A stretch of 57,538 bases of DNA from Chlamydiota bacterium (GCA_050049995.1 JASFVE010000001.1:1-57538), one strand, 5' to 3'. Shown: positions 54,087-57,538, numbered from the stretch's first letter. The notes: generated from the letters alone by a model not told the origin. Numbers and translations are program-made.

Positions 54087-55286
54087 TTATTTTCTAGTTA
54101 GCCTTAGAGCCGAATCCTTAAGTTCTTCATCTTGAATTGCTGCAATGACTCTATTAGCTTCTGTTGGATTCCCCATTTCTATGTGCCTATAGAAGATTTT
54201 TAACAGTGCTATATCTTTCATGCTTTCATCGGGAATTTCATCAGCAGTCGCTTTTGCTTCGATTAGGTTTCCAACTTTAATATAAGCACAAACTACTAAA
54301 GAAAGGCTTTTAGATTTATTCTCAACATCAGGTATAGCAAAAGCACTTTCTCTAGCTGCTGCTAAAAAACCCTCAAATACTTCAACATTTTCCTCCTCGA
54401 AGTAAGCTAGTGCTATTTTCCTTAGAAGGTCCGATTTATATTTAGGGTTAAATATTGTTTTAGAAATATCTTCCGCATGCTGCAAACTATTTATCTTGAT
54501 ATGCACTTTGGCTATTTTAAAAAGAGCTCTACATTTATGATTTCCACGCATCATATAAGCGATTTTTTTAGCTTCATATAAAAAGATTTCAGTCTGTTTA
54601 GCATTTCCGAGCTCAAAATGAGCTAAGGCAATGCTTGTAAAATCATCACATCTATGGGGTACATTGGAAATTGAGTAAGCAACATTCTCTGCTTTTTTCA
54701 AAAATTCAGCAGCCTTTTCAGGGTTTCCCATTGCCACATATGCTGAAGTAATTTTAAGCAAAGCATAACACTTTTGAAAGTGAGCATTTGGGATTATTTT
54801 CTCGAGTTCAGTAGCTTGCTTAAAGTTTATTTCTTCTGCCTCAAACTCCCTAAATCCATGATGAATAAGAGCTATCTCAGTAAGGTAAGAGATAGCTAAA
54901 TACTCTAAGCCTTCATCATTCTTAATATTTTCTAGGCGGTCTCTTCTATATTTTAAATAATCCCTACACTCCTTTGAAAGTTCTCGACTTTTGGCCAACA
55001 AACTTTGAGCCTTATCATTGTCAAAATTTTGCTGCACACAAGCAAGCTCTTGTAAAGCAAATACACCACCACCCAGGTTCTTGTAAGTTCTCTTCTTTTT
55101 TGCAACAGTAAGAAGCTTAGCAATCTTTTTCTCTGCTAAATCAGCTATGATTTTAGCGTTAGGCTCAAATTCCGAGCCTTCTTGCATTTGAAGGTGAGAG
55201 ATGACAGGCAAGAACCCAGGATTTTGCGCAAAATCATCAATTAAGTTAAAAACTTCCGTTGGCACTTGTACGGTATTTACAGCCAT
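54087..55286 (-). CDS. TPR-like repeat protein, paralog A of tandem family
   Basis: 399 aa. N-terminal module VQVPTEVFNLIDDFAQNPGFLPVISHLQ, then degenerate repeats of about 36-40 aa (IA.AY...GN...A..FL..A...A). C-terminus ...DEELKDSALRL. Confidence 0.75.
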   Translation of the reverse strand: MAVNTVQVPTEVFNLIDDFAQNPGFLPVISHLQMQEGSEFEPNAKIIADLAEKKIAKLLTVAKKKRTYKNLGGGVFALQELACVQQNFDNDKAQSLLAKSRELSKECRDYLKYRRDRLENIKNDEGLEYLAISYLTEIALIHHGFREFEAEEINFKQATELEKIIPNAHFQKCYALLKITSAYVAMGNPEKAAEFLKKAENVAYSISNVPHRCDDFTSIALAHFELGNAKQTEIFLYEAKKIAYMMRGNHKCRALFKIAKVHIKINSLQHAEDISKTIFNPKYKSDLLRKIALAYFEEENVEVFEGFLAAARESAFAIPDVENKSKSLSLVVCAYIKVGNLIEAKATADEIPDESMKDIALLKIFYRHIEMGNPTEANRVIAAIQDEELKDSALRLTRK

Positions 55287-55348
55287 ATTAAACCTATTTT
55301 ATTGTGTATGTATAAGATTTATTCATCAGTGCTAGATTTAAGCAATTA

Positions 55349-56623
55349 TTAATTGAATTTTGCAAAAGCTTTCTCTTTCAATTCGAAAGAAAAAATCATA
55401 TTTGCCACTCTTCTAGCTGCATCCACATCATTAGCTGCATAATATGCATTTGCAAGAGCTAAGACAGCATCATCATTGTGCCAAACTGTAGCAAGTAAAT
55501 TAAGGAGTCTTTCAGCCTCATTTAAGTTTTTGATTTTTATATACACAGAAGCTATGGCAGGAAAATTCTTTTCCTTTAATTCAGATCTTCTTGAGTATCT
55601 TTCAGCTTTCCTCAAAAGGCTTACCGCTTTATCTGTCTTATCTATTTCAGCATACGCTAAAGAAAGTTCAATCAATAAATCAGCTCTAAAAACAACCGGA
55701 AGAGCAAATCTTTTTTCAACAGATTTTTCCAATAATTCTTCAGTTTTTTCAATATCTCCCATTTTAAGGTATAAAATAGCAAGATCTTTAAAGCTTTCAG
55801 CTACCCAATCATCGGATACATCAGCTGTTTTACTTGCTATATGTAAGAATTCTTCAGCTTTTTCAATATTGCCCATTTTAAGATGTACTGAAGCGATTTT
55901 GATCAAAGTTTTACATGCATTATTGAAAACATTAGGCATTTTACATGCTAAATCTTCTAGTTGTTGTAAAAAACGTTGCGCCTCATCCAATTCATTGAGA
56001 GAAAAATGGATTTCAATAATTTTAAAAAGATAAAAAGTAGCCTTTAAAGTTTTTTCAAAAAAAGAATCATCTAACGTACCGTGTTTATTTAAACTACCAA
56101 TTAAAATCTTAGACATTTTTCTATCTAACTTTTGCTTTAAAACCTGCAAAAGCTCTCTACAGTCCTTTAAAGTAAGCTCTCCCTCTTTCTGTAGTGCTAG
56201 AGCTTCATTCGCATCACCTAAACTGTTATAGATTTCAGCCAGCTCTAGAAAAGGAAATACGTTTTTGGCTTGAGTTTCCGTAGTTGCAGTGTAAGAATCA
56301 TGAAGCTCCTCTATTTTCTCTTTTGCAAAGTCAGCAATAGCCATTGTCTGTTCCTTTTCGGCTAGACTGTCATAGACTTTAGCAAGTTCTAGTAAAGGAA
56401 GAATGCTCAGAGAGTAAAGCTCACTTGCTGTTTGCTGTGAAGCAGAATAAAATTCAGCAATTTTATCTCTTCCTAAGTTAGCAATGATTTCTGCTCTTTT
56501 ATTAAGTAGCGGACTTTTTTGGATAAGCAATTGTGAAATACTAGGTAAAAACCCAAGTGTACCAGCAAAGTCATCAATTATATTAAAGATTTCAGTTGGA
56601 GTTTGCATTATATCTACTACCAT
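55349..56623 (-). CDS. TPR-like repeat protein, paralog B of tandem family
   Basis: I prefer the ATG at 56623 (MVVDIMQTPTEIFNIIDDFAGTLGFLPSISQL). It aligns residue-for-residue with the paralog A start and has a GAAGGGG Shine-Dalgarno 5-6 nt upstream. The track start at 56692 would overlap paralog C by 37 nt. Confidence 0.75.
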   Translation of the reverse strand: MVVDIMQTPTEIFNIIDDFAGTLGFLPSISQLLIQKSPLLNKRAEIIANLGRDKIAEFYSASQQTASELYSLSILPLLELAKVYDSLAEKEQTMAIADFAKEKIEELHDSYTATTETQAKNVFPFLELAEIYNSLGDANEALALQKEGELTLKDCRELLQVLKQKLDRKMSKILIGSLNKHGTLDDSFFEKTLKATFYLFKIIEIHFSLNELDEAQRFLQQLEDLACKMPNVFNNACKTLIKIASVHLKMGNIEKAEEFLHIASKTADVSDDWVAESFKDLAILYLKMGDIEKTEELLEKSVEKRFALPVVFRADLLIELSLAYAEIDKTDKAVSLLRKAERYSRRSELKEKNFPAIASVYIKIKNLNEAERLLNLLATVWHNDDAVLALANAYYAANDVDAARRVANMIFSFELKEKAFAKFN

Positions 56624-56655
56624 AGTACCCCTTCTTTTTTTGGGAATAAAAATTT

Positions 56656-57538
56656 TTATTCTAATCTCTTGAATGCCTGCTCTTTCATCCAAAGAGTTTG
56701 CATTGTTGAGGCAACTCTTCTGGCATCATCTATCATACCAACTAATCTATATGACATAATAATAGATAATTTAGCATGGTCACTTGATAATGGATGAACA
56801 ATTGAATTAGCAATCCCTTCAGCTTTCCCAAAAAAATTTTCCGCTTCTGTTGTATTTCCTAGATAACGATATGAATGGGCAATTGTACAAAAATTGCTAA
56901 CCAAGCTTAAATTGCTAACCAAGCTTAAATTGCTAGGCAAGCTTTTAGGTTCTTTATCTGCCATCTTTGCAATCTTATGCAAAAGTTCTTCTGCTTTTTC
57001 ATTATCATTCATTTTAGAGTGAGCAAAGATAAGCACTCTATAAAGTGCAAGCTTTGAAGTATAATCTTGCTCTTTTTCAGCAAGCTTCATTGCTTCATTA
57101 AAGAAAAACTCAACCCCTTCAAATTCTCTCAGTTCATGACAAATTGCAGCTATTTCAGTCAAAGAAGAAATACAAGGATAAGTTAAATTAGGGCCCGGTA
57201 AATCTTTTATTTGTTCTTTTATATAGCTTCTACAACTAAGTAAACACTTTTCATATATACCTGAAAAGGTTTGCGCCATATCAGTATTTTTAAAACTTTG
57301 ATAGACCTTAGCTAACTCTCGAGATGAAGCGGCAATTTTAGCTTCGAGTTTCTTTAAATCTTGCTCTGAACTTTCTGTGTTGTATCTATTCATCAGATGC
57401 ATAATTTTATCACTAACCAAGTCAGCAATAGCCTCAGCTTGTTCTTTATAAGGAGGATTATGTTGTGCATGCATCTGGGCAACAGTGGGTAAAAAAGCAG
57501 GGCTTTGTCCCATGTCATCGATGATTGTCAATATTTCT
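56656..57538 (-). CDS. TPR-like repeat protein, paralog C, 5' end beyond window
   Basis: The frame stays open to the last base (..EILTIIDDMGQSPAFLPTVAQM aligns with TEIFNIIDDFAG..GFLP of the paralogs), so a few N-terminal codons lie outside the window. Confidence 0.7.
   Translation of the reverse strand, partial: EILTIIDDMGQSPAFLPTVAQMHAQHNPPYKEQAEAIADLVSDKIMHLMNRYNTESSEQDLKKLEAKIAASSRELAKVYQSFKNTDMAQTFSGIYEKCLLSCRSYIKEQIKDLPGPNLTYPCISSLTEIAAICHELREFEGVEFFFNEAMKLAEKEQDYTSKLALYRVLIFAHSKMNDNEKAEELLHKIAKMADKEPKSLPSNLSLVSNLSLVSNFCTIAHSYRYLGNTTEAENFFGKAEGIANSIVHPLSSDHAKLSIIMSYRLVGMIDDARRVASTMQTLWMKEQAFKRLE
56891..56944 (-). repeat. 18-bp in-frame tandem repeat x3 (two identical copies plus one with 2 mismatches)
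   Basis: AAATTGCTAACCAAGCTT at 56891-56908 and 56909-56926, and AAATTGCTAGGCAAGCTT at 56927-56944. It encodes SLPSNL-SLVSNL-SLVSNF in paralog C. Confidence 0.9.

Follow-up and report, generated by a model that had tools for sequence, protein, structure and literature searches.

The question raised by this locus is what function is served by neighbouring proteins that begin alike and then diverge. The locus lies at the right-hand end of a stretch of 57,538 nucleotides (nt) from a Chlamydiota bacterium (GCA_050049995.1, JASFVE010000001.1:1-57538), which was analysed at its full length and is referred to here as the window. It contains three consecutive genes, T1, T2 and T3, which a first-pass annotation of the sequence had already placed on one strand, this being the minus strand. 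T1 (54087-55286) and T2 (55349-56623) are complete coding sequences for tetratricopeptide repeat (TPR) solenoid paralogs of 399 and 424 amino acids (aa). T3 (56656-57538) has its 5′ end cut by the window edge; 293 codons are present, and about 29 N-terminal residues probably lie beyond the edge. Each protein starts with a conserved segment of about 50 aa, here called the N-module, which is followed by a body of diverging TPRs. The reading towards which we tentatively lean is that T1-T3 belong to a birth-and-death family of exported host-interaction TPR adaptors, presumably delivered by chlamydial type III secretion.

T2 starts at an ATG that follows the Shine-Dalgarno motif aagaagggg, and the same start codon is kept in the ortholog on L005, an assembly from a related organism, in line with the start codon and ribosome-binding site originally assigned; the alternative 447-aa form that starts at a TTG is an upstream extension that overlaps T3. 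The three proteins are clearly related, with 25-33% identity in pairwise BLASTP and expect values (E) of 1e-24 for T1/T2, 3e-25 for T1/T3 and 7e-11 for T2/T3. T2 additionally contains an extra duplicated helical hairpin, of 70 aa, directly after the N-module.

Tandem copies at a contig end call for some caution, as T1-T3 could be collapsed or duplicated copies of a single gene, produced by the assembly. The contig does end within the array, in a stretch that is protein-identical to a gene on another contig. However, a repeat scan found no long near-identical DNA repeats between the copies, whose proteins are far too different, and the order T3-T2-T1 was recovered independently in the Logan run assembly L001, with the order T2-T1 recovered in two more assemblies of the related organism (L005 and L008). 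The divergence of the copies, on which the first-pass annotation had relied, and the independent assemblies together rule out assembly duplication, to which we give a negligible probability. Given the low protein identity, a DNA identity of 49-63% in the N-module, and the lack of long DNA repeats, T1-T3 are old, true paralogs.

The bodies of the proteins are TPR solenoids, as had been supposed from their degenerate helical repeats. Pfam finds only TPR families in T1-T3. T2 matches TPR_12 with 53.9 bits (cut-off 30.1) and TPR_19 with 51.9 bits (cut-off 25), and T3 matches TPR_8 with 27.0 bits (cut-off 25.7); the matches of T1 fall below the curated cut-off (24.3 against 30.1 bits). AlphaFold2 predicts an all-alpha solenoid for T1 over residues 41-399 (predicted local distance difference test, pLDDT, 85, from an alignment of 4 sequences) and also for T2 (pLDDT 83, 10 sequences). 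Both models have 7-8 helical hairpins, with a period of 32-44 aa, and a terminal helix. It is thus the curated Pfam scores, for T2 and T3, and the stacked-hairpin superhelix of the models, for T1 and T2, that place the family in the TPR superfamily.

When the models were compared with the PDB using Foldseek, the best matches were all TPR domains, namely those of LGN/Pins, kinesin light chain (KLC1), OGT and Rap, with E between 5e-6 and 1e-4, template modelling (TM) scores of 0.3-0.46 and sequence identities of 11-17%. These are peptide-binding superhelices of 7-8 hairpins with a groove that binds extended peptides, and they are the closest structural matches. None of them has an N-module, and the likeness of the T1 and T2 models to them is a generic solenoid similarity.

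Two further shared segments had been picked out in the first-pass annotation. The mid-region motif SLTEIAxIxHxxREFE is indeed present, but it corresponds to helix A of the first canonical TPR hairpin. The C-terminal segment, (L/M)K(D/E)xAF, does not hold up as a shared module: its mean identity of 27% is no better than that of the body, and in the models it forms the last helix of the solenoid, so that it is most simply taken as a terminal capping helix and not as a separate signal.

The N-module is a different matter. It was located by alignment and with a hidden Markov model (HMM) of the module, occupying residues 5-58 of both T1 (55113-55274, minus strand; 89.6 bits) and T2 (56450-56611, minus strand; 86.7 bits). 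In T3 it is truncated at a conserved Glu, leaving 46 residues (57400-57538, minus strand; 80.4 bits). Since T3 is on the minus strand, the window edge, which falls within this module, cuts the N-terminus of T3 and not a downstream copy. The pattern first reported, xPTE(I/V)FN(I/L)IDDFAxxxGFLPxIS(Q/H)L...AxIIA(D/N)L..KIA, is present as stated, and the consensus can now be written as (D/E)Y(I/L)xxVPxE(I/V)FxIIDDFAxNPxFLPxI(S/A)QLHxQxxPPxxxQAxAIAxLAxxKI. Among ten family members the mean pairwise identity is 46% in the N-module (52 columns), against 20% in the linker and 27% in the repeats and C-terminus. The residues E11, I16, D17, D18, F25, L26 and P27 are invariant.

This conservation is confined to the protein level. 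Between the modules of T1, T2 and T3 the proportion of synonymous differences is 0.62-0.95, which is near saturation, and that of nonsynonymous differences is 0.30-0.41. With synonymous sites near saturation, the conservation of the module among these three genes must come from selection on the protein. Together with the nucleotide identity of 49-63%, the saturation rules out gene conversion as its cause.

Searches of the N-module against Pfam, NCBIfam, PADLOC and the sequences of the PDB gave no match, and on this basis it appears to be an undescribed domain, in agreement with the first-pass annotation, which had not recognised it. It is also rare. An exhaustive HMMER search with a profile of the N-region against 1.84 billion representative proteins returned 10 hits at E up to 1e-3, of which about 8 are genuine, a number that does not suit a widespread housekeeping domain. 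When 5.8 billion clusters were searched with a profile, a few further members came to light. A word-index homolog search with a 65-aa alignment of the N-module returned nothing, missing even the window's own proteins.

All of the members found are annotated solely as "hypothetical" or "TPR repeat protein", and all of them belong, as judged from the names of their sources, to two uncultured Chlamydiota lineages. The first is a metagenome-assembled genome (MAG) with PVI40_ locus tags, and the second is "Chlamydiae bacterium CG10_big_fil_rev_8_21_14_0_10_35_9" (COT84_ tags), which matches the metagenome Ga0210057. A pattern scan of 185,579 GTDB species genomes gave no confirmed family member, so that neither the window's organism nor any carrier of the family is among those representatives, and no N-module was found in three other chlamydial MAG loci, which were fetched via the neighbouring tgt gene. 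If the window and the PVI40_ sequences are from one organism, that genome has at least 8 TPR members, as well as a protein lacking TPRs (P0010, described below), and the relative has 4. From these searches, the family appears to be small, restricted in lineage and variable in copy number.

The first-pass annotation expected the array to continue past the window edge. The additional copies lie instead on a different contig, where at least five genes (P0024, which encodes 453 aa, a gene encoding 410 aa, P0023, P0014 and P0008) form a second tandem array. This array is present on a 23-kb (23,364-bp) contig of the PVI40_ MAG, which is probably the same MAG as that of the window, and also on Logan and JGI contigs from samples that contain the window genes. 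The first 40 residues present in T3 (57418-57537; EILTIIDDMG...AIADL) are 100% protein-identical to residues 30-69 of P0024, with complete divergence beyond. The window therefore ends inside a repeat common to two paralogs.

Simple continuation of the array is not what the relative shows. In its syntenic locus, this COT84-like organism (L005, L008) has only the orthologs of T2 and T1; T3 is absent, and sequence homologous to the window extends only some 20 nt upstream of T2, giving a locus of two genes bounded by a likely 3′ end of 5S ribosomal RNA (rRNA). L001, L005 and L008, which are independent assemblies of the locus, all end at or before the position of the window edge. Positions 1-127 of L005 are identical to positions 1-127 of L007, these being two contigs of the relative that share the same 127-nt start. 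When the first 70 nt of L007 were compared with Rfam, the best match was to the 3′ end of 5S rRNA, over the first 47 nt and model positions 69-120 of 120; the match is 5′-truncated and weak (14.5 bits, E 0.53), and an earlier Rfam scan of the start of L005 did not pick up 5S rRNA. We consider it likely that both contig starts carry the 3′ end of 5S rRNA. In both, this is followed by a terminator hairpin and then by a different array of the family: the orthologs of T2 and T1 (T2o-T1o) after one putative rRNA operon, and P0004, which is T3-like (38% identical to T3), with P0013, a divergent member, after the other. The relative thus seems to have two rRNA operons, with the arrays appearing to sit directly downstream of them. 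It is because they follow rRNA operons that the arrays would mark the places where assemblies break.

The second array also provides some indication of how the family changes. P0024 carries a second N-module and a mini-duplication, LPLEIVTEVPLEILT. These features, and the stretch that P0024 shares with T3, are signs of recombination at the module boundaries.

The N-module is also found away from TPRs. P0010 (PVI40_06880, 201 aa) is encoded outside the window and, going by its name, would come from the same MAG as the PVI40_ family members. It consists of two tandem N-module-like repeats (IPxDxIALIGEFSxNxxFLPAVS) and has no TPR body, an architecture which suggests that the module works on its own. 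With two copies in P0024, and two more in the TPR-less P0010, the N-module behaves as an autonomous and mobile unit.

A simpler view would be that the module has no separate function and just caps the solenoid at its N-terminus and supplies its first helices, its conservation being due to structural constraint or to recombination at the 5′ ends of the genes. The model of T2 goes some way towards this, as residues 25-70 are helices that run on into the solenoid (pLDDT 73-84), and the 5′ ends evidently do recombine, given the 40 residues common to T3 and P0024 and the two modules of P0024. However, both models show their least confident packing in the best-conserved stretch, residues 8-27 (PxE(I/V)FxIIDDFAxxxxFLP), with pLDDT below 50 over residues 1-24 of T1 (4 sequences) and of 58-61 over residues 1-20 of T2, rising to 73-84 over residues 21-50 (10 sequences). 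Such a stretch, conserved and yet of low order in the models, fits a segment that would fold on a partner. Furthermore, ordinary TPR caps are not 46% conserved between paralogs whose repeats are 20-27% identical, gene conversion offers no explanation within T1-T3, where the synonymous sites of the module are saturated, and in P0010 the module occurs twice with no solenoid to cap. A purely structural cap is therefore improbable.

The window has syntenic orthologs on L005, and this permits an estimate of evolutionary rates. For ten of twelve flanking proteins, identity to the L005 ortholog is 92-99.7%, and the ratio of nonsynonymous to synonymous substitution rates (dN/dS) is 0.004-0.14, with a median of about 0.07. 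By comparison, T1 is 72% identical to its ortholog (dN 0.15, dN/dS 0.26) and T2 is 62% identical (dN 0.23, dN/dS 0.32), so that dN of these two genes is 5- to 20-fold above that of neighbouring genes. Their dN/dS being below 1, T1 and T2 are functional genes. The first-pass annotation compared the arrangement to that of expanded effector or adaptor families, a pattern which the variation in copy number and the fast evolution would fit.

We therefore return to the exported host-interaction adaptors proposed at the outset. Each protein has about seven TPR-like hairpins, closed by a terminal helix, and the peptide-binding superhelix that they build changes rapidly among paralogs and orthologs alike; the proposal is that its variable groove would recruit different clients. 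The constant N-module would be a common handle docking all members to one shared partner, which might be a secretion chaperone, the secretion apparatus itself, or one common host protein. Type III secretion signals are typically rich in Ser and Thr. Six members of the family have a variable Ser/Thr-rich N-terminal extension before the module, in which the combined fraction of Ser and Thr is 0.24-0.48, against 0.13 ± 0.07 in other proteins of the window. An extension of this composition followed by the module is compatible with a type III signal and a shared chaperone- or partner-binding element.

Several observations count against export. T1 and T2 themselves have no Ser/Thr-rich extension, and their N-termini are acidic. 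No type III secretion or chaperone genes were found beside either array, and no eukaryote-like domain was detected in the proteins. Chaperone-binding regions are in many cases extended strands wound around the chaperone, whereas the N-module is predicted to be helical. When dN/dS was followed along T1 and T2, as the first-pass annotation had proposed, it was below 1 in every sliding window, and no window indicated positive selection. Rates like these would equally arise from relaxed constraint on a cytosolic protein that is not essential.

The same observations suit a family that stays within the bacterium. The proteins could be intrabacterial TPR adaptors or regulators, all docked by the N-module to one bacterial partner (an enzyme, a protease, a sigma or anti-sigma factor, or an envelope machine) and using the groove to sense or recruit bacterial clients in the manner of Rap and the RRNPP proteins. 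In size and architecture they do resemble Rap, which has a helical N-terminal element and about 7 TPRs in about 400 aa, and RapH and a plasmid Rap are among the Foldseek matches. The consistently low dN/dS, the lack of secretion machinery or a eukaryote-like domain nearby, and the absence of a signal-like N-terminus in T1 and T2 all agree with such a role. Yet the structural resemblance is generic (TM 0.3-0.46): RapH itself matches with E 1.3e-4 and TM 0.38-0.46, at the level of any TPR protein. Pfam and NCBIfam give no Rap match, and where NCBIfam matches TPR chaperones and regulators, the scores are far under the cut-offs. Rap/RRNPP regulators have an N-terminal 3-helix bundle or helix-turn-helix domain and, downstream, a cognate small gene for a Phr-type peptide; the stretches that separate T1, T2 and T3, only 32 and 62 nt long, contain no small open reading frame and are too small for Phr-like peptide genes. 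The family is also limited to a single lineage, its copy number differs between close relatives, and a dN 5- to 20-fold above that of the neighbours is unusual for core regulators. On balance an intrabacterial role is possible but rather unlikely, and we keep the exported adaptors as the preferred reading.

A further step can be taken from this preferred reading. With about 50 aa, the N-module may constitute a new domain that acts autonomously, or else a linear docking element, specific to one chlamydial lineage, and may send the TPR effectors and P0010 alike to one partner, such as a dedicated secretion chaperone or a host hub, with the rRNA-adjacent sites acting as hot spots at which modules are swapped onto new bodies. 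We regard this as doubtful. If true, module swapping at the arrays would amount to a built-in generator of effector diversity.

Some established groups of TPR proteins can be compared with the family. Class II chaperones of the type III secretion system (LcrH/SycD and SctY; Scc2 and Scc3 in chlamydiae) are TPR proteins tied to chlamydial type III secretion, and T2 gives weak NCBIfam matches to them (18-23 against 70-105 bits). The individual cut-offs are not reached, the scores being 23.3 against 70 bits for SctY and 18.1 against 104.8 bits for LcrH_SycD, and T1 and T3 give no match. These chaperones are conserved, single-copy proteins of about 150-230 aa with three TPRs, whereas T1 and T2 have 399-424 aa and 7-8 hairpins and come from a fast-evolving tandem family. 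Membership of a defence system was also considered and dropped: T1-T3, the neighbouring gene, P0010 and P0014 gave no match to the PADLOC anti-phage defence models at E up to 0.01.

A useful model for a common handle is provided by the Salmonella pathogenicity island 2 (SPI-2) effectors SifA, SifB, SseJ, SspH1/2, SlrP and SseI. These share an N-terminal translocation domain, a leader of about 140 aa with the motif WEK(I/M)xxFF, which is carried on divergent bodies, some with leucine-rich repeats (LRRs), and for which a role in translocation has been established by experiment. T1-T3 follow the same design, with a translocation role that is hypothetical; they have no sequence relation to these effectors, and the organism and secretion system are different.

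A closer parallel is found in the NEX and PEX families of the Parachlamydiaceae, which are tandem expanded families with a conserved N-terminal domain and TPR or LRR repeats; the type III signals of representatives proved functional when assayed in Shigella (PMC4209131). NEX2 has an N-terminal F-box followed by DUF294/OTU and TPR, and PEX2 has TPR with a C-terminal CHAT domain (PMC4209131, Domman et al. 2014). The likeness of NEX2 and PEX2 to the present family is considerable: both are from environmental Chlamydiae, are annotated as hypothetical, and have a central or C-terminal TPR array behind an N-terminal region conserved among paralogs; both form tandem arrays and evolve by birth and death, with a copy number that varies between relatives and under overall purifying selection. 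There are also clear differences. Genomes carry 4 to about 9 copies of the present family but 27-50 of NEX2/PEX2, and the type III signals of NEX/PEX are experimental, whereas those of the present family are putative. None of the additional domains is shared, as T1-T3, P0004, P0005 and P0008 gave no match to F-box, DUF294, OTU or CHAT. The HMMER search with the N-region, which found members in the two MAG lineages only, returned none named from cultured Parachlamydiaceae, and the comparison with NEX/PEX is one of descriptions. We conclude that the family and its N-module are undescribed, and that environmental chlamydiae are already known to have families of this kind, in which repeat proteins with a conserved N-terminal part have expanded.

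The F-box of NEX2 suggests a more specific idea, namely that the N-module is a divergent F-box and that T1-T3 join the SCF ubiquitin ligase of the host as F-box/TPR substrate receptors, as for Neochlamydia NEX2 and Legionella AnkB. F-box and TPR families are indeed known in Chlamydiae (PMC4209131), and the motifs have a superficial likeness, (V/I)PxE(I/V)(F/L)xxI being comparable to the LPxE(I/L)LxxI of the F-box. In our reading of the alignment, the P0010 variant, ending in FLPAVSKEL, also recalls the VSKxW of the F-box. However, no module is matched by any Pfam F-box family at E up to 10, nor did a search of the PDB with the module profile, to the same limit, bring up an F-box protein. An F-box profile was constructed from five sequences (Skp2, Fbxw7, TIR1, cyclin F and beta-TrCP), and recovered 39 F-box proteins from the PDB, down to E 9e-22; aligned with this profile by hhalign, the module profile gave a probability of 1% over 18 columns. 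The helix 3 Trp and its spacing are also absent from the module. We therefore reject an F-box identity, which is highly improbable on these results.

Environmental chlamydiae serve as a model for how obligate intracellular bacteria invent proteins that manipulate the host, and most candidate effectors in them are orphan repeat proteins. The present family is small and tractable: with one handle on diverging TPR grooves, and with orthologs of low divergence, selection, recombination breakpoints and partner binding can all be mapped. Were the N-module a secretion or chaperone tag, it would constitute a rare export signal recognisable from sequence in Chlamydiota, which could be used to mine related MAGs for effectors. 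The practical impact is limited by the lack of cultured organisms and by the restriction of the family to two MAG lineages.

It is worth adding some details of the locus. T3, T2 and T1 probably form one transcription unit. A hairpin with a U-run lies 3′ of T1 (54025-54071, minus strand; folding -15 kcal/mol, z = -3.3), and although a scan for the terminator consensus did not call it, it is likely to be an intrinsic terminator that closes the unit. Part of it (54035-54068 of the window) corresponds to the post-5S hairpin of L005 (72-107), the two being 89% identical over 36 nt, and this may be a reused terminator element. Within T3, an 18-nt unit occurs three times in tandem (56891-56944, minus strand), as two exact copies and one of 89% identity, encoding SNLSLV-SNLSLV-SN. 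This is a recent slippage duplication located in a loop of the solenoid.

The rest of the window is an ordinary chlamydial chromosome, with FtsH, a Pom outer-membrane protein, GlgB, LigA, PNPase and similar proteins; its Tgt is at most 73% identical to that of any GTDB representative. The match to the Pom family (Protochlamydia outer membrane protein; 28233-29240, plus strand) supports the Chlamydiota origin of the contig. FtsH has a long N-terminal extension, giving a protein of 916 aa (21805-24555, minus strand), and this length we take to fit the same origin. A 379-aa protein (18443-19582, minus strand) has LRR_6 and LRR_4 matches and no other domain, and is of a type often proposed as a chlamydial effector. 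Finally, the gene next to T1 (53028-54008, plus strand) encodes a protein of 326 aa, which has a weak match to DUF4347 (E 0.007) and whose C-terminal half repeats the motif PALQR(K/R)xxDFDL. It is the fastest-evolving gene nearby, with 42% identity to its L005 ortholog and a dN/dS of 0.58, and may encode another host-interaction protein.

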